Assembly (NCBI RefSeq): GCF_001677475.2
Contig: NZ_CP015229.1
DNA length: 64,000 bases
DNA from: Escherichia coli
Lineage (GTDB): Bacteria > Pseudomonadota > Gammaproteobacteria > Enterobacterales > Enterobacteriaceae
Reading direction: 5' to 3' (one strand)
The notes under the pieces are model-generated. The model was not told the origin of the DNA, did not search any database, and saw only the letters and a program-made list of their open reading frames with translations. Position numbers and translations under genes: made by a program. Position 1 is the first letter of the stretch. Each line of letters starts with the position of its first letter. Shown here in pieces: positions 10,812 to 64,000 of this stretch.

Positions 10812-11342
10812 TTACGCTTTGTAGCTTAATTCTTCGATGGTGTGGAAATGGTTGGTATAGATGCAAATGTCGCCTGCAATATCCAACGCCTTTTCAGCAA
10901 TTTCACGGGCGCTAAGTTCAGTGTTTTCTAACAGCGCGCGCGCCGCAGCCTGGGCGTAAGGGCCGCCGGAGCCGATAGCAATAAGATCGTTTTCTGGCTG
11001 CACCACGTCACCGTTACCGGTGATGATAAGCGATGCAGTTTCATCCGCGACTGCCAGCAGTGCTTCAAGTTTGCGCAACATGCGATCGGTACGCCAGTCT
11101 TTTGCCAGCTCAACGGCGGCTTTGACCAGATGGCCCTGATGCATTTCCAGTTTGCGTTCAAACAGTTCGAACAGCGTAAAAGCATCCGCAGTACCGCCCG
11201 CAAAGCCCGCGATGACTTTGTCGTTGTACAGACGGCGGACCTTTTTCACGTTGCCTTTCATTACGGTATTGCCCAACGTGGCCTGACCATCACCAGCGAT
11301 GACCACATGGCCGTTACGGCGTACGCTTACTATAGTTGTCAC
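10812..11342 (-). CDS. hslV: ATP-dependent protease subunit HslV (176 aa)
   Basis: ORF 176 aa, N-terminal [11 protein letters not shown] with catalytic Thr2; directly upstream of hslU. Confidence 0.95.
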
Positions 11343-11434
11343 GAGCTGACCCCTTGGTTACGAATACAGAGTACAAACCCCGTACAAAAGTACGGGGCAT
11401 AATGCAATTATAGATGGGGGGGATTTTGAGGGTT

Positions 11435-12394
11435 TCAACCCCCGGCGGCGAGCCGAATGCAGTTTGTATGACCCGCCATCTTCAACCGATTGAGAGTGCT
11501 GTCTGCGTTCTCTTTGCCTTTCACCGGGCCAATCACCACTCGATTCCAGCCATTGTTGGTGGTGATTTTCGAGTCAAATCCTTCGAACGCCAGCTGAGCA
11601 CGTACCGTCTCTGCCTGTTCCGCGCCTCTGAACGAACCGCACTGCACCATCCAGCGGCGTTCGTCTTTTTTCTCCGCCGTCGGTTTTGGCGCGTCAGCGG
11701 CACGAGTAACCGGCGCAGCTTGCTGCGGCTTCGACTGCGCGGTCGTGTGCGCAGGGGTTTGCAGCAGATCCTGGTACGGCTGCTGAGTAGACGCCGGTTT
11801 AGACTGGCGCGGTTGCGCCTGTACCGGCGCGGCTTGCGACGTACGCGTCTGCTGCTGCCAGCTTTGTTCAGTCGTACGCGACTGCTGAGCCAGGCGTTGC
11901 TGTTCCGCTAATTGCTGCGCCTGACGTTGGCGCTGTAGCGTTTGCTGACGCTGTTCCGGCGTCTGTTCATTCCACGGAACCTCAACCAGCTGCGTTGGCT
12001 GCTGGCGCATATCAGCCTGCATTTGTTCAAGAAGCTGACGTTGTTCTGGTGTCAGTTGCTCCGGCGTTTTCACTTCACCACCAGCAGAAGGTTCTGTGGG
12101 CGCACGCACACCCGGCTGGCGACTTTCCAGCTCTTTGATGTAGCGCCAGCGTTCTTCTGGTTTTGGTGGTAGTCCGTTTCCGGTCACTTTCTGGCTTTGC
12201 AGCGTCTCGGACTCTTCTTTCTTGTGATGCGTAATGAAGTACAGACCACCGATAAAGGTCACAAGAACGGCGGCAGCAATAGCGACCATAGCGGGAGAAA
12301 CCGCAGGCAGATTTCGTTGCTTTTTCCGTGAGGTGCTCTTTTTTCGCCGCGAAGGTGCCGGTTGGCTGCGGCGTACATAATCTCGTTGTGCCAC
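11435..12394 (-). CDS. ftsN: Cell division protein FtsN (319 aa)
   Basis: ORF 319 aa; Gln/Pro-rich linker and C-terminal SPOR-like region. Confidence 0.92.
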   Translation of the reverse strand: MAQRDYVRRSQPAPSRRKKSTSRKKQRNLPAVSPAMVAIAAAVLVTFIGGLYFITHHKKEESETLQSQKVTGNGLPPKPEERWRYIKELESRQPGVRAPTEPSAGGEVKTPEQLTPEQRQLLEQMQADMRQQPTQLVEVPWNEQTPEQRQQTLQRQRQAQQLAEQQRLAQQSRTTEQSWQQQTRTSQAAPVQAQPRQSKPASTQQPYQDLLQTPAHTTAQSKPQQAAPVTRAADAPKPTAEKKDERRWMVQCGSFRGAEQAETVRAQLAFEGFDSKITTNNGWNRVVIGPVKGKENADSTLNRLKMAGHTNCIRLAAGG

Positions 12395-12485
12395 TATCGT
12401 TTCGCTGTATTTATTCGTTCGTCAGCCCGCCATGTTACTTAAGCGGCGGGCCTTTGACCAGTCACGGCAGTCTTAAAGGTTTACT

Positions 12486-13511
12486 TTAAGGTAACGCGCG
12501 TGTTGATCCCCGGATGATAAGTTCGCAGTCCATTAAACGAGAGCCACTGCCAACGTGTTGCCCCTGCATTTGATCAAGCAATAACAGCATAGCTTCCCGA
12601 CCGATTTCGTAACGCGGCTGCGCGATGGTTGTCAGCGGCGGATCACAAAATTGCGTCAGGTCGATGTTATCAAAACCGATTATGGAAAGGTCTTCCGGTA
12701 CTTTTAGCCCCTGGCGTTTTGCCTGCGAAAGTGCGCCGAGCGCCATCACATCACTATGGCAGAAGACAGCAGTAGGCGGTTGTGGAAGATCAAGCAGCTG
12801 TTGCATTGCTTTGCTTCCGGCTTCGAAGGTGAAGTCGCCACGGGCGATGTATTGCGGATCAATCATAATGCCGCAGCGACGCAGCGCCTGAATGTAGCCT
12901 TGCAGGCGGTAGTGACACAGCGGCATCTCTTCGGGACCGGCTATACAGCCAATCCGTTTATGCCCTTGCTCATATAAATAATTTACTGCATCAAATGCGG
13001 CGGTCAGATTGTCGATATGAACTGTAGGCAGCTCCAGTTCCGGTGCAAATTCGTTCGCCATCACCATCGGCGGCAGATTACGCTGTTCCTCAATGCTGGC
13101 ATCAAACGGCAGCCTTGAACCCAGCAGCAACATGCCATCAATTTGCTTGGTGATGATCAAATCGATAAAGGTTTTTTCCTGCTGATTTTGATGCGCACAG
13201 TCGCCAATCAGCACCAGATATCCGTGATTTGCCGCCGTAACTTCGATACCGCGAATAATTTCGCTAAAGAAGGGATCGCAGATATCCGGGACAATCACCA
13301 GAATGGTACGGGATTCATTACGCTTGACGTTGCGCCCCATAGGCTGAGGTAAATAACCCACTTCCCGGGCCGCTTTTTCAACCCGATTACGGGTGGCCTG
13401 GGAGACTTTATCGGGATTCATTAATGCTCGGGAGACGGTCGCTGTAGAGACTTTTGCCTTGAGGGCAACGTCTTTCATGGTCGCGGCAGTTTCCTGCTTC
13501 TTCGCTTTCAC
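12486..13511 (-). CDS. cytR: LacI-family transcriptional repressor CytR (341 aa, GTG start)
   Basis: Frame contains VKAKKQETAATMKDVA...; 341 aa from GTG at 13509-13511; HTH plus periplasmic-binding-like domain. Confidence 0.88.
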   Translation of the reverse strand: MKAKKQETAATMKDVALKAKVSTATVSRALMNPDKVSQATRNRVEKAAREVGYLPQPMGRNVKRNESRTILVIVPDICDPFFSEIIRGIEVTAANHGYLVLIGDCAHQNQQEKTFIDLIITKQIDGMLLLGSRLPFDASIEEQRNLPPMVMANEFAPELELPTVHIDNLTAAFDAVNYLYEQGHKRIGCIAGPEEMPLCHYRLQGYIQALRRCGIMIDPQYIARGDFTFEAGSKAMQQLLDLPQPPTAVFCHSDVMALGALSQAKRQGLKVPEDLSIIGFDNIDLTQFCDPPLTTIAQPRYEIGREAMLLLLDQMQGQHVGSGSRLMDCELIIRGSTRALP

Positions 13512-13666
13512 ACTCACTCCTCGCCTGGCACGGCAGGCGTACTACTTCCATGTTTACTTCACATCGGCAACATTTTTAGCAGATAGCGCGTGAAAACGGT
13601 TACAGAATTTTCATGAAAAGTGTGATGAATATTGAATTTTTCGATCCGCCTCGCATCGTTTGCGCA

Positions 13667-16024
<2,358 letters not shown>

Positions 16025-16028
16025 TTAG

Positions 16029-16280
<252 letters not shown>

Positions 16281-21443: not shown

Positions 21444-21480
21444 ACATCTGGACGTCTAAATGGATAGATGTTCACAACAC
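21444..21480 (+). promoter_or_regulatory. metF operator with MetJ boxes
   Basis: acatctggacgtctaaatggatagatg contains GGACGTCT-type met boxes just upstream of metF. Confidence 0.6.
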
Positions 21481-21511
21481 AACATATAACTACAAGCGAT
21501 TGATGAGGTAA

Positions 21512-22405
<894 letters not shown>

Positions 22406-22679
22406 GTATTGTGGCTCTTGTAAAAATCACACAGTGATCACAAATTTTAAACAGAGCACAAAATGCTGCCTCGAAATGAGGGCGGGAAAATAAGGTTATC
22501 AACCTTGTTTTCTCCCTCATTACTTGAAGGGTACCAAGCTAAAACCTTTTTTTATAAAGCACTTGTCCGAAATCGGACATAATCAAAAAGGCTTAATTAC
22601 GATCAATTTGATCTACATCTCTTTAACCAACAATATGTAAGATCTCAACTATCGCATCCGTGGATTAATTCAATTATAA

Positions 22680-41696: not shown

Positions 41697-44348
41697 TTAG
41701 CCGGTATTACGCATACCTGCCGCAATCCCGGCAATAGTGACCATTAACGCCTGCTCGACGCGAGGATCCGGCTCATGGCCTTCTTTTTCTGCCTGGCGGG
41801 AGCGGTGCAGCAACTCGGCCTGCAATACGTTCAGCGGGTCGGTGTAAATATTCCGTAGCTGAATAGACTCTGCAATCCACGGCAGATCGGCCATCAGATG
41901 GGAATCGTTGGCAATCGCCAGCACCACTTTGATGTCTTCTTCTTGCAGATTGCGTAACTCTTTACCTAACGGCCACAGTGCTTTGTCTACCAGACGTTGA
42001 TCATAGTATTCCGCCAGCCACAGGTCTGCTTTGGCGAATACCATTTCCAGCATACCCAGACGCGTCGAGAAGAACGGCCAATCGCGGCACATAGCCTCCA
42101 GCTCGCTCTGTTTGCCGTCTTCGACCACTTTTTGCAGCGCCGTACCTGCACCCAGCCAGGCGGGGAGCATCAGGCGGTTTTGCGTCCAGGCGAAAATCCA
42201 CGGAATGGCGCGTAGTGACTCGACGCCGCCGGTTGGGCGACGTTTCGCCGGACGTGAACCCAACGGCAGTTTGCCCAGTTCTTGTTCCGGCGTAGCGGAG
42301 CGGAAGTAAGGCACAAAATCTTTGTTTTCACGTACGTAGCCACGGTAGAGATCGCAGGAGATGACTGACAGTTCATCCATAATGCGACGCCAGCTCTCTT
42401 TCGGCTCAGGTGGTGGCAGCAGGTTGGCTTCCAGAATCGCCCCGGTGTACAGCGACAGGCTGCTGACGGTGATTTCTGGCAGACCATATTTAAAGCGGAT
42501 CATCTCGCCCTGTTCAGTCACGCGCAGGCCACCTTTCAGGCTTCCTGGCGGTTGTGACAGCAGCGCCGCATGAGCAGGTGCGCCGCCACGACCAATGGAA
42601 CCGCCGCGACCGTGGAACAACGTCAGCTCAATACCCGCTTTTTCGCAGGTTTTGATTAATGCATCCTGTGCCTGATATTGCGCCCAGGAAGCTGCCATCA
42701 CGCCCGCATCTTTTGCTGAGTCGGAATAGCCAATCATCACCATCTGTTTGCCCTGAATCAGGCCGCGATACCAGTCGATATTGAGCAGCTGGGTCATGAC
42801 ATCGTTGGCGTTGTTCAGGTCATCGAGAGTTTCAAACAGCGGAGCAACCGGCATTGCAAACCCGATACCCGCTTCTTTCAGCAGCAGGTGGACAGCCAGC
42901 ACGTCGGACGGCGTTTTCGCCATCGAGATCACGTAGGCGGCAATGGAGCCTTGCGGCGCTTCGGCAATCACCTGGCAGGTATCGAGCACTTCGCGCGTTT
43001 CGGCGCTTGGTTGCCAGTTGCGCGGCAGAAGCGGACGTTTGGAGTTCAGTTCGCGGATCAGGAACGCCTGTTTGTCGGCCTCTGACCAGCTTTCGTAGTC
43101 GCCGATACCGAGGTAGCGGGTCAGCTCGCCCAGCGCTTCGGTATGGCGGGTGCTCTCCTGACGGATATCAATACGGACCAGCGGTACGCCGAAACATTTC
43201 ACGCGGCGCAGGGTGTCGAGCAGATCGCCGTTGGCGATAATACCCATGCCACACGCCTGAAGTGACTGGTAGCAAGCGTAGAGCGGTTCCCACAGTTCTT
43301 CGTTTTGTGTCAGCAGGCCTTCTGGTTTTGGCAGTTCTTCGCCTTTCAGGCGCGCTTCCAGCCATGCCTGTGTCGCCATCAGGCGAGAACGCAGGTTTTT
43401 CATCAGATAGCGATACGGTTCTGCGGCACCTTCTTCGCCAACCAGCGCCAGCAGTTCAGGGGTCGCTTCAACCATCGACAGTTCAGAAACCAGCACCTGA
43501 ATATCTTTCAGGAACAGATCGGTGGCTTTCCAGCGACTGAGCAGCAGGACGTGGCGGGTGATATCGGCAGTGACGTTCGGGTTGCCGTCGCGGTCACCGC
43601 CCATCCACGAGGTAAAACGGACCGGAACAAATTCGACGGGCAGTTTGTAGCCGAGATTCTCTTCCAGTTGTTCGTTCAGTTCGCGCAGGTAATTTGGTAC
43701 GCCTTGCCACAGGCTGTTTTCTACTACGGCAAAGCCCCATTTGGCTTCATCTACCGGGCTTGGACGCAGCTTACGGATTTCATCGGTATGCCATGACTGG
43801 GCGATCAACTGGCGCAGGCGGCGCATCAGCTGGTTGTGTTCGTAGTCAGCGATATCTTTGTTATCGAGCTGTTTTAAACAGGCGTTCACTTCCACCATTT
43901 TGTGGATCAGCGTACGACGGGTAATTTCGGTTGGGTGAGCCGTGAGGACCAGTTCCAGCGACAGCGATTCCACTGCTTTTTTGATGGTGTCTTCGCTCAG
44001 TTCCGGCTGGTTTTTCAGTTTACGCAGGGTGCGGGCGATCACTTCCGGGTTGCTGGCAGCTTCGCCTTTCGGCGAAATGCTGTGGTATTGCTCGGCGGTG
44101 TTGGCCAGGTTCAGGAACTGACTAAACGCACGCGCAACGGGCAGCAGCTCGTCGTTCGACAAATTTTGTAAGGTGGTGAGCAACTCCTGGCGGTTAGCAT
44201 CATTGCCAGCGCGTGAAGATTTGGACAACTTACGGATAGTTTCTACGCGTTCAAGAATGTGTTCTCCCAACGCATCCTTGATGGTTTCTCCCAGCACTTT
44301 GCCGAGCATACTGACATTACTACGCAATGCGGAATATTGTTCGTTCAT
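41697..44348 (-). CDS. ppc: Phosphoenolpyruvate carboxylase (883 aa)
   Basis: ORF 883 aa recognised as Ppc ([29 protein letters not shown]). Confidence 0.96.
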
Positions 44349-44676
44349 ATTACCCCAGACACCCCATCTTATCGTTTGATAGCCCTGTATCCTTCACGTC
44401 GCATTGGCGCGAATATGCTCGGGCTTTGCTTTTCGTCGTCTTTTATAAAGCCACGTAAAAGCGGTGACGTCAAATGCTGCGAAATCGCTTCAGCAAACGA
44501 ATAAATAGCAGGAATTTACGTCATTAAATTCACGACGCTTTAAATAAGCGTAACTTATGGGAATGTTAAAAAATCGCCTCAAGTAACACCAAAGAGTTAT
44601 GAGTTGTAGTTACCATTTGGGCAATCATCTGAGATTGCTGACAAACTCGTTTACGGGTCAGTATGGGCACGGTTTT

Positions 44677-44716
44677 CCCCTCACCCTAACCCTCTCCCCG
44701 AAGGGGCGAGGGGACT
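44677..44716. repeat. GC-rich imperfect palindromic element in ppc-argE intergenic region
   Basis: cccctcaccctaaccctctcccc-gaa-ggggcgaggggac; stem cctctcccc / ggggcgagg; resembles a dispersed E. coli intergenic repeat family, exact family not assigned. Confidence 0.45.
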
Positions 44717-44760
44717 GTCCGTGCGCTTGCATGGCTTTGTCATCAGCCTGATTTGCTTTT

Positions 44761-45912
44761 TTAATGCCAGCAAAAATGATGAATTACCTGGGTTATCAGT
44801 TCGCGGGTGGGCTTGATAAACCGTGTTTCCAGATATTCATCAGGCTGATGAGCCTGATTAATTGAGCCAGGGCCCAGAACCAGCGTCGGGCATAACGTTT
44901 GAATAAACGGCGCTTCGGTACAGTAATTCACCACTTCGGTCTTTGCTCCGAGCAATTTCTCAACTACTTCAACCAGTTGATGATTTGGCGGGCATTCATA
45001 GCCAGGGATCGGCGGATGCAGCTCGTCGACCGTCAGACGACCCGGCCAGCGTTCGCTCACCGGAGCCAGCGCATCGTTGAGTAGGCCATTAAGTTCATTG
45101 AGTGTCATGCCCGGCAGCGGACGAATATCCATATGCAACTCACAGCAAGCGCAGATACGGTTAGCCGCGTCGCCGCCGTGAATATGACCGAGGTTAAGCG
45201 TGGGGTAAGGCACGGTAAATGCCTCATAGTGATAGCGTTCTTTAAGATTGTCACGCAGTTGCAGGATATGACCGATGGCGTCGTGCATCAGTTCGATAGC
45301 GTTAACTCCGCGTGCTGGATCGCTGGAGTGGCCCGACTGGCCCTGAATACGGATGGCGTTAGAGATATGACCTTTATGTGCGCGTACCGGTTGTAGTGAC
45401 GTCGGTTCGCCAATGATGGCGCAATCCGGGCGCAGGGCGGTAGTTTCGGCAAAATAACGCGCTCCGGCCATACTGGTTTCTTCATCGGCAGTCGCCAGAA
45501 TGTAGAGCGGTTTTTTCAGTTTCGTGACGTCGACATCGCGTAGCGCATCAAGGATAAACGCAAAAAAGCCTTTCATGTCGGCGGTGCCTAAGCCGTAAAG
45601 CTTGCCGTCATGCTCCGTCAGTGTAAACGGATCGCGCGTCCAGCGTCCGTCATCAAATGGCACCGTATCGGTATGCCCCGCCAGCAACAAGCCGCCAGCC
45701 CCCTGTCCGGTACTTGCCAGCATATTAAATTTGTTGCGAGTTCCTGGCACAGGCTGCACTTCCACATTGAAGCCTAAATCTTTAAACCAGTCCGCCAGCA
45801 GAGTGATTAAATCTGCATTGCTTTGATCGAGTGCCTCTTCCGTGGCGCTTATTGAAGGTGTGGCAATCAGAGCACGGTAAATCTCGATAAATGGCGGTAA
45901 TTTGTTTTTCAT
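44761..45912 (-). CDS. argE: Acetylornithine deacetylase (383 aa)
   Basis: [23 protein letters not shown]...; M20 peptidase family; canonical start at codon 14 of ORF-track frame. Confidence 0.93.
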
Positions 45913-46065
45913 TGTTGACACACCTCTGGTCATGATAGTATCAATATTCATGCAGTATTTATGAATAAAAATACACTAACGTTGAGCGTAATAAAACCCA
46001 CCAGCCGTAAGGTGAATGTTTTACGTTTAACCTGGCAACCAGACATAAGAAGGTGAATAGCCCCG
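45913..46065. promoter_or_regulatory. argE / argCBH divergent promoter region with ARG boxes
   Basis: AT-rich block aatattcatgcagtatttatgaataaaaatacact containing TGAAT...ATTCA-type ArgR operator half-sites. Confidence 0.6.
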
Positions 46066-47070
46066 ATGTTGAATACGCTGATTGTGGGTGCCAGCGGCTA
46101 CGCTGGCGCAGAGCTAGTGACCTATGTAAATCGCCATCCGCATATGAACATAACCGCTTTGACTGTTTCAGCGCAAAGCAATGATGCGGGAAAGTTAATC
46201 TCCGATTTGCATCCGCAGCTAAAAGGCATCGTTGATCTGCCGTTGCAGCCGATGTCGGATATCAGCGAGTTTAGCCCAGGGGTGGACGTGGTGTTTCTCG
46301 CCACCGCCCATGACGTTAGCCACGATTTAGCGCCGCAATTTCTTGAAGCCGGCTGCGTGGTGTTCGACCTTTCCGGCGCGTTTCGTGTTAACGACGCCAC
46401 CTTCTATGAAAAATATTACGGCTTTACCCATCAGTATCCGGAACTGCTGGAACAGGCAGCCTACGGTCTGGCCGAGTGGTGCGGTAATAAATTAAAAGAA
46501 GCGAACTTGATTGCGGTGCCAGGCTGTTATCCGACGGCGGCACAGCTGGCGCTGAAACCGTTGATAGATGCCGATCTTCTTGACCTCAATCAGTGGCCGG
46601 TGATCAACGCCACCAGCGGCGTGAGCGGTGCAGGACGTAAGGCAGCGATTTCAAATAGTTTTTGTGAAGTTAGCCTGCAACCGTATGGCATCTTTACCCA
46701 TCGCCATCAACCAGAGATCGCCACACACCTCGGTGCTGACGTTATCTTCACCCCGCATCTGGGCAATTTCCCGCGCGGCATTCTCGAAACCATTACCTGC
46801 CGCCTGAAATCGGGTGTGACCCAGGCGCAAGTCGCGCAAGTGTTACAGCAGGCGTATGCCCATAAACCGCTGGTGCGGCTGTATGACAAAGGCGTTCCGG
46901 CGCTGAAAAATGTCGTTGGGCTGCCATTTTGCGATATCGGGTTTGCCGTTCAGGGCGAGCATCTGATTATTGTGGCGACCGAAGACAACTTACTGAAAGG
47001 CGCGGCGGCACAAGCGGTACAGTGCGCCAATATTCGTTTCGGCTATGCGGAAACGCAGTCTCTTATTTAA
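46066..47070 (+). CDS. argC: N-acetyl-gamma-glutamyl-phosphate reductase (334 aa)
   Basis: ORF 334 aa, [20 protein letters not shown]-binding N-terminus. Confidence 0.95.
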
Positions 47071-47077
47071 GGGTGCA

Positions 47078-47854
47078 ATGATGAATCCATTAATTATCAA
47101 ACTGGGCGGCGTACTGCTGGATAGTGAAGAGGCGCTGGAACGTCTGTTTAGCGCACTGGTGAATTATCGTGAGTCACATCAGCGTCCGCTGGTGATTGTG
47201 CACGGCGGCGGTTGCGTGGTGGATGAGCTGATGAAAGGGCTGAATCTGCCGGTGAAAAAGAAAAATGGCCTGCGGGTGACGCCTGCTGATCAGATAGACA
47301 TTATCACCGGAGCACTGGCGGGAACGGCAAATAAAACCCTGCTGGCATGGGCGAAGAAACATCAGATTGCGTCCGTAGGTTTGTTTCTCGGTGACGGCGA
47401 CAGCGTCAAAGTGATCCAGCTTGATGAAGAGTTAGGCCATGTTGGACTGGCGCAGCCAGGTTCGCCTAAGCTTATCAACTCCTTGCTGGAGAACGGCTAT
47501 CTGCCGGTGGTCAGCTCCATTGGCGTAACAGACGAAGGGCAACTGATGAACGTCAATGCTGACCAGGCAGCGACGGCGCTGGCGGCAACGCTGGGCGCGG
47601 ATCTGATTTTGCTCTCCGACGTCAGTGGCATTCTCGACGGCAAAGGGCAACGCATTGCCGAAATGACCGCCGCGAAAGCAGAACAACTGATTGAGCAGGG
47701 CATTATTACTGACGGCATGATAGTGAAAGTGAACGCGGCGCTGGATGCTGCGCGCACGTTGGGCCGTCCGGTAGATATCGCCTCCTGGCGTCATGCGGAA
47801 CAGCTTCCGGCACTGTTTAACGGTATGCCGATGGGTACGCGGATTTTAGCTTAA
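47078..47854 (+). CDS. argB: Acetylglutamate kinase (258 aa)
   Basis: [20 protein letters not shown]; canonical ATG 47078 eight nt after argC stop. Confidence 0.93.
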
Positions 47855-47914
47855 GTTTTGTTAGCCGGAGGCGCAGCTTTCCGGCATTGAATTTCAAAAT
47901 AAGGAAACAGAGTT

Positions 47915-49288
47915 ATGGCACTTTGGGGCGGGCGTTTTACCCAGGCAGCAGATCAACGGTTCAAACAATTCAACGACTCACTGCGTTTTGATTACCGTCT
48001 GGCGGAGCAGGATATTGTTGGCTCTGTGGCCTGGTCCAAAGCCCTGGTAACGGTCGGTGTGCTGACCGCAGAAGAACAGGCGCAACTGGAAGAGGCGCTG
48101 AACGTGCTGCTGGAAGATGTTCGCGCCAGGCCACAACAAATCCTTGAAAGCGACGCCGAAGATATCCATAGCTGGGTGGAAGGCAAACTGATCGACAAAG
48201 TGGGTCAGTTAGGCAAAAAACTGCACACCGGGCGTAGCCGTAATGATCAGGTAGCGACTGACCTGAAACTGTGGTGCAAAGATACCGTTAGCGAGTTGCT
48301 GACGGCTAACCGGCAGCTGCAATCGGCGCTGGTGGAAACCGCACAAAACAATCAGGACGCGGTAATGCCAGGTTACACTCACCTGCAACGCGCCCAGCCG
48401 GTGACGTTCGCTCACTGGTGTCTGGCGTATGTTGAGATGCTGGCGCGCGATGAAAGCCGTTTGCAGGATGCGCTTAAGCGTCTGGATGTCAGCCCGCTAG
48501 GCTGTGGCGCGCTGGCGGGAACAGCCTATGAAATCGACCGTGAACAGTTAGCAGGCTGGCTGGGCTTTGCTTCGGCGACCCGTAACAGTCTCGACAGCGT
48601 TTCTGACCGTGACCACGTGCTGGAACTGCTTTCTGCTGCCGCTATCGGCATGGTGCATCTGTCGCGTTTTGCTGAAGACCTGATCTTCTTTAACACCGGC
48701 GAGGCGGGGTTTGTGGAGCTTTCTGACCGCGTGACTTCCGGTTCATCATTAATGCCGCAGAAGAAAAATCCGGATGCGCTGGAGCTGATTCGCGGTAAAT
48801 GCGGTCGGGTGCAGGGTGCGTTAACCGGCATGATGATGACGCTGAAAGGTTTGCCGCTGGCTTACAACAAAGATATGCAGGAAGACAAAGAAGGTCTGTT
48901 CGACGCGCTCGATACCTGGCTGGACTGCCTGCATATGGCGGCGCTGGTGCTGGACGGCATTCAGGTGAAACGTCCGCGTTGCCAGGAAGCGGCTCAGCAG
49001 GGTTACGCCAACGCCACTGAACTGGCGGATTACCTGGTGGCGAAAGGCGTACCGTTCCGCGAGGCGCACCATATTGTTGGTGAAGCGGTGGTGGAAGCCA
49101 TTCGTCAGGGCAAACCGCTGGAAGATCTGCCACTCAGTGAGTTGCAGAAATTCAGTCAGGTGATTGACGAAGATGTCTATCCGATTCTGTCGCTGCAATC
49201 GTGCCTCGACAAGCGTGCGGCAAAAGGCGGCGTCTCACCGCAGCAGGTGGCGCAGGCGATTGCTTTTGCGCAGGCGCGGTTGGGGTAA
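47915..49288 (+). CDS. argH: Argininosuccinate lyase (457 aa)
   Basis: [26 protein letters not shown]; fumarase/aspartase family signature [12 protein letters not shown]. Confidence 0.96.
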
Positions 49289-49312
49289 GAACATTTATAT
49301 GTACAAATTTGA

Positions 49313-49338
49313 GCCTGGCTTATCGCCGGGCTTTTTTA
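49313..49338 (+). terminator. Rho-independent terminator of argCBH
   Basis: gcctggc-ttatc-gccgggc hairpin followed by ttttttat. Confidence 0.7.
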
Positions 49339-49339
49339 T

Positions 49340-49459
49340 GGCAAAAAAAAGCGGATCCTGGAGATCCGCAAAAGTTCACGTTGGCTTTAGTTATTCGAGT
49401 TGAGAAACTCTCGAAACGGGCAGTGACTTCAAGGGTTAAAAGAGGTGCCGCTCCGTTTC
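49340..49459 (-). ncRNA. oxyS: OxyS small regulatory RNA (oxidative-stress sRNA)
   Basis: Minus-strand sequence GAAACGGAGCGGCACCUCUUUUAACCCUUGAAGUCACUGCCCGUUUCGAGAG...GCGGAUCUCCAGGAUCCGCUUUUUUUUGCC matches OxyS as recalled; terminal hairpin plus U8; divergent from oxyR. Confidence 0.9.
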
Positions 49460-49554
49460 TGTGAGCAATTATCAGTCAGAATGCTTGATAGGGATAATCG
49501 TTCGTTGCTATGCTACCTATCGCCGCGAACTATCGTGGCAATGGAGGATGGATA
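49460..49554. promoter_or_regulatory. oxyR-oxyS divergent promoter / OxyR binding region
   Basis: Intergenic region between oxyS 5' end and oxyR ATG; established OxyR autoregulatory site location; individual ATAG-type repeats not mapped here. Confidence 0.55.
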
Positions 49555-50472
49555 ATGAATATTCGTGATCTTGAGTACCTGGTGGCATTGGCCGAACACC
49601 GCCATTTTCGGCGTGCGGCAGATTCCTGCCACGTTAGCCAGCCGACGCTTAGCGGCCAAATTCGTAAGCTGGAAGATGAGCTGGGCGTGATGTTGCTGGA
49701 GCGGACCAGCCGTAAAGTGTTGTTCACCCAGGCGGGAATGCTGCTGGTGGATCAGGCGCGTACCGTGCTGCGTGAGGTGAAAGTCCTTAAAGAGATGGCA
49801 AGCCAGCAGGGCGAGACGATGTCCGGACCGCTGCATATTGGTTTGATTCCTACGGTTGGACCGTACCTGCTACCGCATATTATCCCGATGCTGCACCAGA
49901 CATTTCCAAAGCTGGAAATGTATCTGCATGAAGCACAGACCCACCAGTTACTGGCGCAACTGGACAGCGGCAAACTCGATTGCGTGATCCTCGCGCTGGT
50001 GAAAGAGAGCGAAGCATTCATTGAAGTGCCGTTGTTTGATGAGCCAATGTTGCTGGCTATCTATGAAGATCACCCGTGGGCGAACCGCGAATGCGTACCG
50101 ATGGCCGATCTGGCAGGGGAAAAACTGCTGATGCTGGAAGATGGTCACTGTTTGCGCGATCAGGCAATGGGTTTCTGTTTTGAAGCCGGGGCGGATGAAG
50201 ATACACACTTCCGCGCGACCAGCCTGGAGACGCTGCGCAACATGGTGGCGGCAGGTAGCGGGATCACTTTACTGCCAGCGCTGGCTGTGCCGCCGGAGCG
50301 CAAACGCGATGGGGTTGTTTATCTGCCGTGCATTAAGCCGGAACCACGCCGCACTATTGGCCTGGTTTATCGTCCTGGCTCACCGCTGCGCAGCCGCTAT
50401 GAGCAGCTGGCAGAGGCCATCCGCGCAAGAATGGATGGCCATTTCGATAAAGTGTTAAAACAGGCGGTTTAA
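49555..50472 (+). CDS. oxyR: LysR-family hydrogen-peroxide sensor/regulator OxyR (305 aa)
   Basis: [44 protein letters not shown]; Cys199/Cys208 region present (DGHCLRD ... FCFEAG). Confidence 0.96.
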
Positions 50473-51855
50473 ACCGTTTAACGCAGCTACCCGATAGGCT
50501 TCCGCCATGGTCGGGTAGTTAAAGGTGGTGTTGACGAAGTACTCAATAGTGTTGCCGCCACCTTTCTGTTCCATAATCGCCTGACCGATATGAATAATTT
50601 CGGCAGCGCGCTCGCCAAAGCAGTGAATACCCAGAATCTCTTTTGTTTCCCGATGGAACAAAATTTTCAGCGTGCCCACGTTCATGCCGACGATTTGTGC
50701 ACGTGCCAGATGTTTAAACTGGGCGCGGCCCACTTCATATGGCACTTTCATCGCGGTCAGCTGCTGTTCGGTTTTGCCCACAGAGCTGATTTCCGGGATG
50801 GTGTAAATGCCGGTAGGGATATCTTCAATCAGATGCGCGGTGGCTTCGCCTTTTACCAGCGCCTGCGCGGCAATGCGCCCCTGGTCATAGGCCGCTGATG
50901 CCAGGCTCGGATAACCAATCACGTCGCCCACCGCGTAAACGTGCGGCTGTGCGGTCTGATACATGCTGTTGACCTTCAGCTGTCCGCGACTGTCAGTTTC
51001 CAGCCCAATGTTCTGTAACGCCAGCGAATCGGTATTACCGGTACGACCGTTGGCATAGAGCAGGCAGTCAGCTTTCAGTTTTTTACCCGACTTCAGATGC
51101 ATGATCACACCGTCGTCACAGCCTTCGATCTTCTCGTACTCTTCGTTGTGACGAATCACTACGCCACTGTTCCAGAAGTGATAGGAGAGAGAATCTGACA
51201 TCTCTTGATCGAGAAATGCCAGCAGGCGATCGCGGGTGTTGATCAGATCCACTTTTACATCCATACCGCGGAAGATCGACGCATATTCACAGCCGATCAC
51301 TCCAGCACCATAGATAAGTACATGGCGCGGTTCGTGGTGCATGCTGAGAATTGAGTCGCTGTCGTAAATGCGTGGATGGGTGAAATCAACATCTGTTGGA
51401 TGATATGGACGAGAGCCGCAGGCAATAACAAATTTTTCAGCGGTTAGCGTTTCAACGCTGCCGTCCGGGCAATCCAGCGCCAACGTATGCTCGTCAACAA
51501 AGCGAGCGTTCCCCTGCAATATTTCACAGTGATTACGTTCGTAAAATCCCTGACGCATGCGCGTTTGTTGATTAATCACGTTATCGGCATGGTTAAGGAT
51601 ATCGGCAAAAGAAGAGCGGAGCAGTCGGGAATGGTCGCTGTATAGTGGGTTTTGATTGAATTCTATAATGCGGCTGACGGCGTGACGGAGAGCTTTCGAC
51701 GGGATGGTGCCCCAGTGGGTGCAACCGCCGCCAACATTTTGATAACGCTCGATAACTGCGACGCGCGCACCTTGCTTAACCAGGCCCATTGCAGCGCCTT
51801 CGCCGCCGGGGCCGGAACCTATTACTATGGCATCGTAATCGTAGGAATGTGGCAT
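50455..51855 (-). CDS. sthA: Soluble pyridine nucleotide transhydrogenase (466 aa)
   Basis: [28 protein letters not shown]-binding N-terminus; 3' end overlaps oxyR 3' end convergently by 18 nt. Confidence 0.95.
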
Positions 51856-52184
51856 GGTAGGGCTTACCTGTTCTTATACATAAAAGCAACAGAATGGTAA
51901 CATTTTATCGCGGGTAAGCCAATTGATCCCCGTCATTAATCTGGCTATAGCGTGAGCGGCCTTTGCTTTGTCTGCCCCCTTCTTAACCCATTTATTTACT
52001 ATTAATCGCTTTTTCTTATGGCTGATAGTTTTATCTTGCCGAAGCGTGCTTTTTTGTTATTGTCTTTATGAAATATTCTTATAAAACAAACATATAAATA
52101 TTTTATATTGATGAGTTATTTGTATTTATACCATCAATAAAATCCGTTAATTAGCCTGTTTATAAGTGAATAAAGGAATAGCCG

Positions 52185-53351
52185 ATGATCGAACACTATA
52201 TTCGAGGGTTTGAGGAAGAACTGCGTGAGATCCGCCATCAGATCCACGAAAACCCGGAGCTGGGATTACAAGAATTTAAAACCAGTGCTTTGGTGGCGGA
52301 AAAGCTGCGTCAGTGGGGCTATGAAGTAGAGCAAGGACTGGCGACGACGGGGATAGTGGCCACGTTAAAAGTGGGCGACGGAGAGAAAAGTATTGGCCTG
52401 CGGGCGGATATGGATGCGCTGCCAATTTATGAAAATAGTGGCAAGCCCTGGGCCAGTAAACATCCTGGTTTAATGCACGCCTGCGGGCATGACGGGCATA
52501 CCACCATACTGCTGGGGGCCGCGCGTTATTTTGCCGAAACCCGCCGTTTTAACGGCACGTTACGTCTTATCTTCCAGCCTGCGGAAGAGATGATTAACGG
52601 CGGTGAGATCATGGTTAAAGAGGGGCTTTTTGATCATTTCCCCTGCGATGTCATTTTCGGCATGCATAACATGCCCGGTCTGCCGGTGGGTAAGTTTTAT
52701 TTCCAGCCAGGGGAACTGATGGCGTCAATGGATCAGTTCCATATTACAGTTCGTGGTTGTGGCGGACACGGTGCGATCCCGCACAAAGCCATCGATCCGG
52801 TGCTGGTTGCCGCACATATCACCACCGCATTACAAAGCATTGTGTCGCGCAATGTCGATCCGCTGGAAGCGGCGGTAATTACCGTCGGCAGCATTGTTGC
52901 GGGTGAGGCGGCTAACGTCATTCCTGACAGTGCTGAGATGAAAATCAGCGTCCGCTCTCTTAGCCGCGATACCCGACAACTTCTTCTGACCCGTATTCCT
53001 GCTCTGGCACAAACCCAGGCTGCCAGCTTTGGTGCTACGGCTGAGGTTACGCATGTTAACGGTACACCGGTATTAGTGAATGACGAGGAGATGGCGCGCT
53101 TCGCCTGGCAGGTGGCGTGTAAAACGTTTGGTGAAGATCGGGCCGAGTTTGGCATCAAGCCCCTGATGGGCAGTGAGGATTTCTCTTTCATGCTGGAAGC
53201 CCAGCCGAAAGGCGCTTTTTTGCTGTTCGGTAATGGCGATGTCGGGGAAGGTTCCTGCATGGTGCATAACCCGGGTTACGACTTCAACGATGCAAGTCTG
53301 GTCCCGGCATGCAGCTACTGGGGCGCACTGGTAGAAGCTTGGCTGCAATAA
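52185..53351 (+). CDS. M20D-family amidohydrolase (hippurate hydrolase / N-acyl-amino-acid amidohydrolase-like), 388 aa; accessory gene not in K-12
   Basis: Metal-binding motifs typical of M20D enzymes (HACGHDGH, ...GEE...); GGAA RBS-like upstream; no paralogue recalled at this locus in K-12. Confidence 0.8.
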   Translation: MIEHYIRGFEEELREIRHQIHENPELGLQEFKTSALVAEKLRQWGYEVEQGLATTGIVATLKVGDGEKSIGLRADMDALPIYENSGKPWASKHPGLMHACGHDGHTTILLGAARYFAETRRFNGTLRLIFQPAEEMINGGEIMVKEGLFDHFPCDVIFGMHNMPGLPVGKFYFQPGELMASMDQFHITVRGCGGHGAIPHKAIDPVLVAAHITTALQSIVSRNVDPLEAAVITVGSIVAGEAANVIPDSAEMKISVRSLSRDTRQLLLTRIPALAQTQAASFGATAEVTHVNGTPVLVNDEEMARFAWQVACKTFGEDRAEFGIKPLMGSEDFSFMLEAQPKGAFLLFGNGDVGEGSCMVHNPGYDFNDASLVPACSYWGALVEAWLQ

Positions 53352-53393
53352 ATAAAACAACACACAACAACACTTTTTGGCAAGGAACATGGA

Positions 53394-54710
53394 ATGACGG
53401 CGATCGTAAATGAAACCGTGAGTGTGAAGAAAAAGCCCAGCGGTAAGCGGGTGATTTTTGCTTCGGCGTTTGGCAATGCGCTCGAATTTTTTGATTTTGG
53501 CGTTTACAACTTTTTTGTGGTCTATATCAGTACGCTTTTCTTCCCACCCAGCGCTGATCACAATGTCGCGCTGTTACTGGCATTTGCAACATTTGGCGTG
53601 AGTTTTTTTATGCGCCCGCTTGGTGGAATTATCGTCGGGGCCTGGGCCGATCGCTTCGGACGCAAACCCGCGATGGTGTTCACCATTGCCCTGATGAGCC
53701 TCGGTACACTGATGATCGGCATCGCACCGACGTATGAAACGGCGGGCTATTGGGGAACCGCGACGCTGGTGCTGGCGCGTCTAATTCAGGGCGTTGCGGC
53801 AGGAGGCGAAGTCGGTGCCTCAATGTCTTTGTTGGTTGAATCAGCTCCGGCAAATCGTCGCGGCTTTTACAGCAGTTGGTCACTGGCGACTCAAGGCCTG
53901 GCAACAACCTTTGGTGGTGTTGTCGCTTTAGGTTTAAGCGCATGGCTGCCCTTTGCGACAGGTTCAGAAACCGTAATGGCTGAATGGGGCTGGCGTGTGC
54001 CATTTTTTATTGGCGTGTTATTAGCACCTATCGGTTGCTGGTTGCGTCTGAGCCTGGAAAATGACGTACCTGAGCTAGTGCGCAATAAAAAAGCTGCTAC
54101 CAGCGAAAGCGCGTTCTCTCTGCTCCTGCAACATAAGGCGACTATCGTTAACGGCGTTTTACTCGCTATTGGTAGCACGGTCGCAACCTATATCTCCCTC
54201 TTTTATTACGGCACCTGGGCGGCGAAGTATCTGGCGATGCCTCAACATTATTCTCATGCAGCGATGTTACTGGCGGGCGTTATTACGTTTGTGGGTGCGC
54301 TGCTTGTGGGGATGTTGTGCGATTCGGTCGGGCGTAAAAAGCTGATTTTAATCTCCCGTGTGATGGTGCTGATCTGTAGCTGGCCGTCATTCTGGCTGTT
54401 GGTGAATTACCCAAGCCCTGGCATGTTGCTGACGGTGGTTTTCGTGATGGTCAGCTTTACCACGCTTGGCGGTGTGCCGGTAATGTTGCTGATCTCTGAA
54501 CTGTTGCCGAAACGGATTCGGGCATTGGGTTTTGCGCTGGTTTATAGCATTGGTGTGGCAATCTTTGGCGGTTTTGCTCAATATTTCGCTACGCAATCCA
54601 TCGTGTTGCTGGATAGTTTGACAGCTCCGGCGTGGTATTTGGGTGGAGGCACGTTGCTGTCGATGCTGGCGTTGTTGTACGTAAAAGAACCGGCCAAAGA
54701 ATTGCAGTAA
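53394..54710 (+). CDS. MFS transporter, metabolite:H+ symporter (MHS) family-like (438 aa); accessory gene not in K-12
   Basis: ~12 predicted hydrophobic helices; MFS loop motif [10 protein letters not shown]; MHS-like signatures [26 protein letters not shown] (compare ProP/KgtP/ShiA). Confidence 0.8.
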
Positions 54711-54759
54711 ATATGTTTTATTGCGTTACCGTTCATTCACAATACTGGAGCAATCCAGT

Positions 54760-55464
54760 ATGTTCATTCTCTGGTATAGTGCCAGCAGTACTTTTGGCAA
54801 GGATTCAGACATCGTGATGGGCGTAAGAGCGCAACAAAAAGAAAAAACCCGCCGTTCGCTGGTGGAAGCCGCATTTAGCCAATTAAGTGCTGAACGCAGC
54901 TTCGCCAGCCTGAGTTTGCGTGAAGTGGCGCGTGAAGCGGGCATTGCTCCCACCTCTTTTTACCGGCATTTCCGCGACGTAGACGAACTTGGTCTGACCA
55001 TGGTTGATGAGAGCGGTTTGATGCTGCGCCAACTCATGCGCCAGGCGCGTCAGCGTATTGCCAAAGGCGGGAGTGTGATCCGTACCTCGGTCTCCACATT
55101 TATGGAGTTCATCGGTAATAATCCGAACGCCTTCCGGTTATTATTGCGGGAACGCTCCGGCACTTCCGCTGCGTTTCGTGCCGCCGTTGCGCGTGAAATT
55201 CAGCACTTCATTGCGGAACTTGCGGACTATCTGGAACTCGAAAACCACATGCCTCGTGCGTTTACTGAAGCGCAAGCCGAAGCCATGGTGACGATTGTCT
55301 TCAGTGCGGGTGCCGAGGCGTTGGACGTCGGCGTCGAACAACGTCGGCAATTAGAAGAGCGACTGGTACTGCAACTGCGAATGATTTCGAAAGGGGCTTA
55401 TTACTGGTATCGCCGTGAACAAGAGAAAACCGCAACTATTCCGGGAAATGTGAAGGACGAGTAA
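54760..55464 (+). CDS. fabR: TetR-family repressor of unsaturated fatty acid synthesis FabR (234 aa by K-12 annotation; alternative ATG at 54817 gives 215 aa)
   Basis: ...[52 protein letters not shown] TetR HTH; GGAG RBS 9 nt upstream of ATG 54760. Confidence 0.88.
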
Positions 55465-55823
55465 TGAAACAAGCAAATCAAGATAGAGGTACGCTGCTGC
55501 TGGCGTTGGTTGCTGGCTTATCGATTAATGGTACTTTCGCAGCTCTGTTTAGCTCCATAGTGCCATTTTCTGTATTCCCGATTATTTCCCTGGTGCTGAC
55601 GGTTTACTGCCTGCATCAACGTTATCTTAATCGCACTATGCCGGTAGGCTTGCCGGGTCTGGCAGCTGCCTGTTTTATTCTCGGCGTACTGCTGTACAGC
55701 ACGGTAGTTCGTGCGGAATATCCGGATATCGGCTCTAACTTCTTCCCGGCAGTACTCTCCGTCATTATGGTGTTCTGGATTGGCGCGAAGATGCGTAACC
55801 GTAAGCAGGAAGTTGCTGAGTAA
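55464..55823 (+). CDS. yijD: DUF1422 inner-membrane protein YijD (119 aa)
   Basis: ORF 119 aa; ATG overlaps fabR stop (TAATG). Confidence 0.88.
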
Positions 55824-55831
55824 TCGGTATC

Positions 55832-55857
55832 ATGCCGGATGCTGGCGCATCCGGCAT
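55832..55857. terminator. Bidirectional hairpin terminator between yijD and trmA
   Basis: atgccggatgc-tggc-gcatccggcat palindrome (REP-like) between convergent genes. Confidence 0.6.
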
Positions 55858-55862
55858 GGGTT

Positions 55863-56963
55863 TTACTTCGCGGTCAGTAATACGCCGCACTCCATATGGT
55901 GCGTGTAGGGGAACTGATCAAACAGAGCCAGACGTTCGACCTTGTGCGTCTGGCTTAATGTTTCCAGATTCTTGCATAACGTTTCCGGATTGCAGGAGAT
56001 ATACAGAATACGTGGATACGCCTGCACCATTTTCTCGGTTTCACTGTCCAGACCGCTGCGCGGTGGGTCGACAAAAATGGTTTCGCACTGATAACTCTTT
56101 AAGTCGATCCCTTGCAGGCGGTTAAACTCGCGCACACCATTCATCGCCTGAGTAAATTCTTCTGCCGCCATACGAATAATTTGTACGTTATCAATATGGT
56201 TAGCGGCAATGTTGTATTGCGCAGCAGCAACCGACGGCTTAGCGATTTCGGTGGCTAATACCCGATCAAAATTGCGCGCCAGTGCTAATGAAAAGTTACC
56301 GTTGCCGCAGTACAGCTCCAGTAAATCGCCTTTTGAGCCTTTGGTTACGTCCAGCGCCCATTCCAGCATCTGAATATTCATCGCCGCGTTCGGCTGGGTA
56401 AAGCTGTTTTCTACCTGACGGTAGATCATCTCTTTCCCTGCGACCGGCAGACGTTCATCGATGTAATCTTGATCCAGCTCGATTTTGGTTTTCGTTGCCC
56501 GACCAATCAGATGCACATTCAGATTCTGCGCTCGCAGTGCATCGCGCAGGGCTTCCGCTTCCTGACGCCACTCATCATCCAGCTTTTTATGGTACAGCAG
56601 GGAAACCACCGCCTGATTACTCAACGTAGTGAGGTAATCAATCTGGAACAACTTGTGGCGCAGAACGGGATTATTACGCACACCCGCAATCATCGCCGTC
56701 ATCAACTGGTTGATGAGTTCACTGGCAGCGGGGAAGCTATCCACGCGGATGCGGCTTTTGGTTTGTTGATCGAAAATGATGTGGTACAGGTCATCGCCAT
56801 CGTGCCAGATGCGGAACTCCGCGCGCATCCGGTAATGACTGACCGGCGAGCGAAACACTTCCGGAACCAGGTCAGAAAACGGTGCCATCATACTTTGCAA
56901 ACGTACCACTTTTTCGGCTAACTGCGCTTCATACTGTTCTGTTGGAAGGTGTTCGGGGGTCAT
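55863..56963 (-). CDS. trmA: tRNA (uracil54-C5)-methyltransferase (366 aa)
   Basis: ORF 366 aa recognised as TrmA ([29 protein letters not shown]). Confidence 0.94.
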
Positions 56964-57090
56964 GATGTATCCTGAAAAATTAAAGTACGCGGCGATTGTA
57001 GGGATTGCTCATCAGATGTCCAGATCTTGATGAATTCCTATTTGTGAGCTACGTCTGGACAGTAACTTGTTACAACCTGTAGCATCCACT

Positions 57091-57331
57091 TGCCGGTCCT
57101 GTGAGTTAATAGGGAATCCAGTGCGAATCTGGAGCTGACGCGCAGCGGTAAGGAAAGGTGCGATGATCGCGTTATGCGGACACTGCCATTCGGTGGGAAG
57201 TCATCATCTCTTAGTATCTTAGATACCCCTCCAAGCCCGAAGACCTGCCGGCCAACGTCGCATCTGGTTCTCATCATCGCGTAATATTGATGAAACCTGC
57301 GGCATCCTTCTTCTATTGTGGATGCTTTACA
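57091..57331 (+). promoter_or_regulatory. btuB 5' leader containing adenosylcobalamin riboswitch
   Basis: Leader matches the btuB riboswitch as recalled (gccggtcctgtgagttaatagggaatccagtgcgaatctggagctgacgcgcagcggtaaggaaaggtgcg...gaagacctgccggcc B12-box region). Confidence 0.85.
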
Positions 57332-60351: not shown

Positions 60352-61893
<1,542 letters not shown>

Positions 61894-61978
61894 CCTTAAA
61901 GAACTGTGCTTTGCAGTGCTCACACAGATTGTCTGATAGAAAGTGAAAAGCAAGGCGTCTTGCGAAGCAGACTGATAC

Positions 61979-62054
61979 GTCCCCTTCGTCTAGAGGCCCA
62001 GGACACCGCCCTTTCACGGCGGTAACAGGGGTTCGAATCCCCTAGGGGACGCCA
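61979..62054 (+). tRNA. gltT: tRNA-Glu (anticodon UUC) in 16S-23S spacer
   Basis: GTCCCCTTCGTCTAGAGGCCCAGGACACCGCCCTTTCACGGCGGTAACAGGGGTTCGAATCCCCTAGGGGACGCCA; cloverleaf with TTC anticodon. Confidence 0.97.
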
Positions 62055-62247
62055 CTTGCTGGTTTGTGAGTGAAAGTCACCTGCCTTAATATCTCAAAAC
62101 TCATCTTCGGGTGACGTTTGAGATATTTGCTCTTTAAAAATCTGGATCAAGCTGAAAATTGAAACACTGAACAACGAAAGTTGTTCGTGAGTCTCTCAAA
62201 TTTTCGCAACACGATGATGAATCGAAAGAAACATCTTCGGGTTGTGA

Positions 62248-64000
<1,753 letters not shown>

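Follow-up and report, generated by a model that had tools for sequence, protein, structure and literature searches.

An apparently intact oxyS locus between argH and oxyR in an Escherichia coli genome, with tail-to-tail argH and oxyS terminators

INTRODUCTION

The small RNA (sRNA) OxyS represses rpoS by competing for Hfq. Its gene in Escherichia coli K-12 is recorded for strain MG1655 as a 117-nt oxyS, separated by 54 nt from the argH stop codon that precedes it and by 95 nt from the oxyR start codon that follows. The activities described for the RNA include a bipartite kissing complex with fhlA (PMC10578473), repression of nusG through the linker and the second hairpin, by which kilR comes to be expressed and division is transiently arrested to the benefit of DNA repair (PMC5793797), and repression of rpoS (Zhang et al. 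1998). More recent work adds control of iscR and of Fe-S cluster biogenesis (PMC11572966). The proposed ancestor of oxyS is the mRNA 3' end of prx, a gene for an OxyR-regulated peroxiredoxin-glutaredoxin in other Enterobacterales families (Krieger et al. 2022, PMC8825220). Like oxyS, this 3' end is divergent from oxyR across the same OxyR-bound region and has the inherited intrinsic terminator that faces argH (PMC8825220).

Here, we describe the corresponding locus in a 64,000-nt stretch of E. coli DNA (the window), in which an earlier reading of the bare letters had placed a minus-strand OxyS gene between argH and oxyR (the original prediction). The arrangement of argH, oxyS, and oxyR in the window agrees with that of the locus in PMC8825220. 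It differs from prx in that no peroxidase coding sequence is left and in that OxyS arises as a primary transcript from a promoter of its own rather than as a fragment of an mRNA. On the evidence presented below, the locus is an ordinary, already described feature that departs from the known system by ordinary polymorphism at most.

RESULTS

Identity and extent of the oxyS gene

A scan of the whole window with Rfam 15 recovered a full-length match to the OxyS family (RF00035) on the minus strand (49350..49459; model positions 1 to 110 of 110). The match scores 139.5 bits, where the gathering score is 75 (E = 4.6e-29), which puts it well outside chance, and all consensus pairs are formed, none of them non-canonical. 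A permissive local re-scan of 49200..49700 returned the same family with E = 3.6e-31 and gave no further significant match besides OxyS. Hits to Hrs12, Trp leader, and anti-hemB on the plus-strand argH terminator reached 17 to 21 bits (E = 0.1 to 0.5), far below their gathering scores, and were set aside as terminator-shaped chance matches. Alignment to the MG1655 noncoding RNA gene oxyS (b4458) gave identity at 117 of 117 positions, and the distances from the argH stop codon and to the oxyR start codon (54 nt and 95 nt) are the same as in K-12. The two checks suggested with the original prediction, a covariance-model scan and a K-12 alignment, thus both came out as foreseen. From the covariance-model match and this identity, we consider 49343..49459 (minus strand) very likely, with a probability of about 0.97, to be a fully intact oxyS gene, predicted to encode the Hfq-dependent OxyS sRNA of the OxyR peroxide-stress regulon.

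The 5' end of the RNA, from 49459 on the minus strand, reads GAAACGGAGCGGCACC, and its 3' end consists of the hairpin GCGGAUCUCCAGGAUCCGC (49369..49351) followed by U8 (49350..49343). Thus, the 5' sequence, terminal hairpin, and U8 quoted in the original prediction are all present on the minus strand, and so is the RNA gene itself, in its usual place and identical to that of the laboratory strain, as expected of what had been called a known feature. Two details needed correction. The length had been put at about 120 nt; OxyS has 109 to 110 nt plus the U tail, and the extent annotated in K-12 is 117 nt including U8. The interval assigned to the RNA, 49340..49554, does hold the gene, but it also takes in the 95-bp oxyS/oxyR promoter-operator region (49460..49554).

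Across complete E. coli genomes, oxyS was found in 5,425 of 5,426, with at least 99% identity in 4,878. A single complete genome yielded no oxyS match, and two of the matches sit on plasmid records. PGAP-annotated RefSeq genomes of E. coli carry no feature under the name oxyS, and the curated MG1655 record alone has one. Among the E. coli genomes listed, automatic RefSeq annotation leaves the gene out, and recording it calls for a covariance-model scan.

Anatomy and fold of the RNA

The minimum free energy fold of OxyS contains three hairpins (-32.9 kcal/mol; z = -2.84 against shuffles) and agrees with the Rfam consensus in its layout: a long stem-loop at the 5' end, a small one in the middle, an A/U-rich linker, and a terminator at the 3' end. 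Stem-loop 1 (SL1; nt 1 to 47, 49413..49459, minus strand, as are all the elements of the RNA) is delineated by the fold, the Rfam structure, compensatory changes in homologs, and the NMR description (PMC10578473), and its apical loop (nt 22 to 30, 49430..49438) is complementary to positions +34 to +42 of fhlA. Stem-loop 2 (SL2; nt 50 to 63, 49397..49410) is found both in the fold and in the Rfam structure. It is followed by the A/U-rich unpaired linker (nt 64 to 90, 49370..49396), which is the region of Hfq binding and nusG pairing (PMC10578473, PMC5793797). Stem-loop 3 (SL3; nt 91 to 109, 49351..49369), recovered by both the terminator scan and the fold, is the intrinsic terminator; its loop, UCCAGGA (49356..49362), is complementary to the ribosome-binding region of fhlA, and the U8 tail (nt 110 to 117, 49343..49350) completes the transcript. 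The NMR/SAXS study of the identical RNA (PMC10578473) reported the same layout, plus a weak fourth hairpin inside the linker. At the level of sequence, the predicted Hfq-binding module, comprising A/U-rich single strand, terminator hairpin, and poly-U, is present and identical to that of K-12.

OxyS in other Enterobacteriaceae

For comparison, we assembled 37 loci from about a dozen genera of other Enterobacteriaceae, which were fetched by the exact 22-nt linker block AATAACTAAAGCCAACGTGAAC; because the loci were selected by that pattern, its invariance among them carries no weight. The linker is the most conserved part of OxyS, and the independent consensus of Rfam is highly conserved there too. 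In 33 of the 37 loci, oxyS has argH on one side and oxyR on the other, in the order seen in the window; of the other four, three have argH outside the fetched stretch, and the fourth is a 2-kb locus that holds neither gene.

The 37 loci reduce to 32 distinct OxyS sequences, nearly all of which keep the same layout when folded singly. The stems of SL1 differ from that of the window, with the pairing kept by compensatory changes, e.g., GGAGCGG/CUGCCC in Escherichia versus GGAACGG/CUGUCC in Citrobacter, and the arms are quite different in Franconibacter, Siccibacter, and Klebsiella spallanzanii, the last having an SL1 unrelated in sequence. The terminator stem likewise shows a compensatory change from U-A to C-G. 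SL2 is present in most homologs and is missing entirely from several Citrobacter sequences (five loci). RNAalifold applied to a MAFFT alignment of the 32 homologs gave five invariant pairs and no useful structure, a failure attributable not to absent pairing but to indels in SL1 and SL2 and a 1-nt register shift in SL3 that misalign the arms.

The homologs from Salmonella, Citrobacter, Trabulsiella, Siccibacter, Franconibacter, and others share with the window the site between argH and oxyR, the linker, the SL1 loop motif AACCCUUGAAG, the terminator with its poly-U and, usually, a tail-to-tail argH terminator (see below). [quoted passage not shown]

The divergent promoters and the OxyR operator

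The oxyS and oxyR genes are arranged head to head across the 95-bp region 49460..49554. On the minus strand, the oxyS -10 hexamer GATAAT (49468..49473) precedes the G of +1 (49459), a position inferred from the K-12 annotation, by 8 nt, and (G/A)ATAAT occurs at the same distance from +1 in all OxyS homologs. We found no good -35 hexamer upstream of GATAAT, which fits an activator-dependent promoter.

To score the operator, the published OxyR consensus ATAGnTnnnAnCTAT-N7-ATAGnTnnnAnCTAT (20 specified positions) was run over both strands of the 64-kb window. The best match by letters is 49497..49533 (16 of 20), beside which there is an extra overlapping repeat at 49488..49502; the operator is therefore made up of three ATAG-n7-CTAT-like repeats (49488..49502, 49497..49511, and 49519..49533). 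Relative to the start of oxyS, their centers fall at about -36, -45, and -67, within one nucleotide of the -35, -44, and -66 given for E. coli (PMC5002191). The arms of the repeats (GATAGGGATAATCGTT, TTGCTAT, CTATCGC, and CTATC) are invariant across 36 loci of other Enterobacteriaceae. On the plus strand, a promoter scan based on consensus match alone returned an oxyR promoter-like site (49485..49514) with TTGATA, an 18-nt spacer, and TATGCT preceded by TG, from which oxyR transcription may start near 49521. The operator covers both the -10 hexamer and the inferred start site of oxyR, and this overlap is consistent with autorepression of oxyR by OxyR. The oxyR Shine-Dalgarno sequence, GGAGG, is at 49543..49547 (plus strand).

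The next-best matches to the OxyR consensus in the window are at 21464-21500 (15 of 20) and 22638-22674 (14 of 20). The former is just upstream of metF, overlaps a MetJ-box-like sequence, AGACGTCT, and was left as a probable chance match; the latter lies just upstream of katG. The katG gene is an OxyR target.

Operator haplotype

The window and K-12 share the oxyS sequence, the strand relation to oxyR, the distance to argH, the terminators, the -10 box, and the OxyR repeats. Between 49289 and 49557, they differ at 49304, in the argH-oxyS spacer, and at 49504, 49512, 49525, 49526, and 49540, in the operator region, and at no other position. The window has G, G, GC, and A at 49504, 49512, 49525-6, and 49540, respectively, where K-12 has A, T, AT, and G.

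That these five differences in the operator and oxyR leader crowd into 37 bp beside about 160 invariant bp raises the question of a weakened or deregulated allele, in which altered OxyR binding or an altered oxyR promoter would change oxyS induction and oxyR autoregulation. The concentration of the substitutions in the operator favors such an allele, as do the T-to-G change at 49512, which falls in the predicted oxyR -10 hexamer (TATTCT to TATGCT), and the minority status of the haplotype, which is matched at 99% or better in 728 complete E. coli genomes versus 3,991 in the 90 to 95% band into which K-12 falls (94.7% to the window haplotype). However, each of the five changes either hits a position that the consensus leaves unspecified or falls beyond the motif, which leaves both haplotypes at 16 of 20, and the oxyR -10 hexamer keeps an equal number of consensus matches. 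Moreover, the same five positions vary freely between genera in the cross-genus alignment while the ATAG/CTAT arms stay invariant, and at 49504 and 49512 the window carries the commonest state of the other genera. Hence, a deregulated allele appears very unlikely, and we read the five substitutions, all at non-contact positions, as neutral polymorphism and not as damage to the locus. With the -10 box, the OxyR repeats, the three stem-loops, the A/U-rich linker, and the poly-U tail all in place, and with the operator differences confined to unspecified consensus positions, the statement that the regulatory locus is intact holds.

As a side effect, the change at 49512 creates an in-frame ATG (49510-49512) 45 nt upstream of the oxyR start codon, as a result of which the mechanical list of open reading frames shows an oxyR frame of 320 aa. 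K-12 has an in-frame ATG instead at the position of 49525-49527; both ATGs are upstream of GGAGG. The ATG at 49510 is probably upstream of the inferred oxyR start, and that of K-12 at 49525 is just downstream of it.

Separate terminators for argH and oxyS

Scanning 49200..49650 for terminators returned exactly two terminator-like sites, against 0.5 expected from shuffles. The first is the intrinsic terminator of argH and hence of argCBH (49311..49339, plus strand), a 9-bp stem (GAGCCUGGC/GCCGGGCUU, 49311..49333, with six G-C pairs) with a 5-nt loop and a T-run at 49332..49337, the letters past the stem being TTTT(AT), which folds with -16.4 kcal/mol (z = -3.6). The second is that of oxyS on the minus strand, with its stem at 49369..49351 followed by T8 (-12.4 kcal/mol; z = -3.8). 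Both hairpins fold stably, alone and in their joint 76-nt context. The argH T-run and the A-run complementary to the oxyS U-run are separated by the 5-nt spacer ATGGC (49338..49342), and the two stems are 17 nt (TTTTATGGCAAAAAAAA) apart, so that the predicted 3' ends of the argH and oxyS transcripts lie about 4 to 16 nt apart, without overlap. The original prediction that the oxyS terminator abuts the argCBH terminator hairpin is thus borne out at the level of sequence, as two separate hairpins 17 nt apart, and its companion statement, that the convergent transcripts end within a few nucleotides of each other, is a fair one given these predicted ends.

Bidirectional intrinsic terminators serve convergent genes by means of one shared hairpin with an adjoining T-run and A-run. 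The window resembles this class in that convergent transcripts would stop in a very short intergenic stretch with a T-run beside an A-run. We therefore considered whether a single hairpin, flanked by an A-tract and a U-tract, might serve both the argH and oxyS transcripts, as might be suggested by the T6 and A8 runs being merely 5 nt apart and by the loci of Trabulsiella and Yokenella, which lack the argH hairpin and have no structure downstream of argH other than the oxyS hairpin. Unlike a bidirectional terminator, however, the window has an independent hairpin for each strand, with a T-run following each on the strand concerned. When the strands are exchanged, the oxyS hairpin (plus) is followed by AAAAGTT and the argH hairpin (minus) by CAAATTTGT, neither of which is a proper U-tract; the two are therefore separate tail-to-tail terminators and not a shared bidirectional one. 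The argH hairpin also has compensatory substitutions of its own across genera (see below). A shared terminator is thus extremely improbable, and the convergent argCBH and oxyS transcripts would each stop at their own hairpin, with predicted 3' ends that do not overlap.

Conservation of the back-to-back arrangement and an insertion point

We compared the terminators in the 28 other Enterobacteriaceae loci in which argH adjoins oxyS directly. A stable hairpin and T-run ending 2 to 8 nt (usually 4, 'ATGC') before the A-run was found in 18, and a stable hairpin and T-run with a gap of 15 to 18 nt to the A-run was found in two more; in the remaining eight, the argH hairpin is degenerate, replaced by other palindromes, located elsewhere, or absent. 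Within the 18 to 20 of the 28 loci that conserve it, the hairpin shows compensatory substitutions across genera, e.g., GCCGGGCU to ACCAGGCU opposite AGCCUGG. Trabulsiella and Yokenella (three loci) differ from the window in having no argH hairpin, and their argH stop codon is 2 to 9 nt from the oxyS A-run. The abutting layout is the common state in Enterobacteriaceae and probably the ancestral one, and the arrangement fits the proposal that the oxyS terminator was inherited from an ancestral OxyR-regulated peroxidase gene facing argH (PMC8825220).

Within E. coli, full-length matches to a 267-nt query showed that the argH-oxyS arrangement of the window is present in 3,556 of 5,426 complete genomes. 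An islet-junction query found an islet of about 3.1 kb (10899-14000 in locus L006), encoding ManD (D-mannonate dehydratase) and a major facilitator superfamily (MFS) transporter, between argH and oxyS in 1,869 of the 5,426 (34%). Together these make 5,425, i.e., every complete E. coli genome with oxyS. (An 87-nt junction query gave 2,944 K-12-like genomes, an undercount because it misses strains with a more divergent spacer; the 267-nt and islet-junction counts are those to be used.) Alignment with the islet-bearing strains O103:H2 12009 and CUVET19-1704 showed that the islet takes the place of the entire spacer between the argH stop codon and the A-run, argH terminator included, and that it extends exactly to the A-run for the OxyS U tail (window junction 49342/49343). 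The window and K-12 are both without it. Other islands occur at the same spot in E. whittamii, Escherichia sp. E1V33, Citrobacter braakii, and C. amalonaticus. In E. coli CUVET19-1704, there is also a 5-nt duplication, GCGGA, between the OxyS terminator hairpin and the U-run (L004, about 1494-1505), which could shift the register of the terminator.

One might propose from this that the tail-to-tail pair (argH hairpin, T6, ATG(G)C, A8, oxyS hairpin) is conserved as a unit that insulates OxyS from antisense read-through of argCBH, an operon under arginine control, and vice versa and that its boundary is a preferred insertion point for accessory DNA. The presence of the islet in 34% of E. coli and of islands at the same spot in other species supports this reading, which we nevertheless regard as doubtful.

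Predicted action of OxyS and its targets

In the light of K-12 work, peroxide would be expected to oxidize OxyR, the tetramer of which, bound at about -30 to -75, would activate the oxyS promoter, and the same OxyR-bound site, which overlaps the oxyR promoter, would repress oxyR. The resulting RNA of about 110 nt would, as the identical RNA does, bind Hfq via the A/U-rich linker and the poly-U tail (PMC10578473) and would block translation of its targets by base pairing, that of fhlA via two kissing loops and that of nusG via the linker and the second hairpin. By analogy with K-12, this action would limit mutagenesis and transiently arrest division. We checked the fhlA pairing against the K-12 copy of that gene, since fhlA of the source strain is outside the window: nt 22 to 30 of OxyS pair with +34 to +42 of fhlA, and UCCAGGA, the loop of SL3, with UCCUGGA at -15 to -9, which agrees with the published bipartite kissing complex (PMC10578473). 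Inspection of OxyS also turns up a short open frame of 13 codons initiated by UUG (nt 28 to 69), but a dual-function RNA that also encodes this small peptide deserves next to no credence, as the frame has neither an AUG nor a Shine-Dalgarno sequence, lies inside SL1 and SL2, and is broken by indels in the homologs, several of which (Citrobacter) delete the whole SL2 segment.

Flanking genes and the wider window

The neighbors of oxyS are readily recognized. The upstream gene on the plus strand, argH (47915..49288), encodes argininosuccinate lyase and is the last gene of argCBH (NCBIfam equivalogs NF008964, 864 bits, and TIGR00838, 717 bits). It is followed, beyond oxyS, by oxyR (49555..50472, plus strand), which codes for the LysR-type peroxide sensor (NCBIfam equivalog NF008361, 632.9 bits, positions 1 to 305 of 305), and by sthA (50455..51855, minus strand; NCBIfam equivalog match). 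Strain 2012C-4221 is 100% identical to the window over 49289..49555, and its RefSeq annotation agrees on argH, oxyR (WP_001025939.1), and sthA.

Some features farther out were recorded in passing. Between sthA and fabR there is an islet of about 2.6 kb (approximately 52185-54800), absent from K-12, with genes for an M20-family aminoacylase/amidohydrolase (52185-53351) and for a citrate-proton symporter, the latter frameshifted in PCN033, the closest complete genome. Over the 14 kb from 42000 to 56000, the best identity to any of the 5,426 complete E. coli genomes is 98.1%, with the differences evenly spread; by this comparison, the DNA appears to come from an E. coli-like lineage that has no close relative among those complete genomes. 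The other Rfam matches above gathering score (11340-11397, 16009-16061, 57077-57266, 60352-64000, and 62132-62240) are all expected here and comprise the ClpQY (hslVU) promoter element, the L31 leader, the cobalamin riboswitch upstream of btuB, and an rrn operon with 16S, a spacer tRNA, a partial 23S, and StyR-44 in the spacer.

Significance

The population and cross-genus comparisons add modest context, namely, that a two-gene islet replaces the argH-oxyS layout in about one-third of E. coli. Were the tail-to-tail pair indeed an insulating unit, strains with the islet, having lost the argH-type hairpin beside oxyS, might show a different antisense pressure on OxyS. The main value of the analysis is as a quality check, in which oxyR, the operator, and oxyS are complete and unaltered in this genome; hence, the peroxide response, the repression of fhlA and nusG, and the Hfq-linked effects of OxyS would be expected to operate as in K-12.
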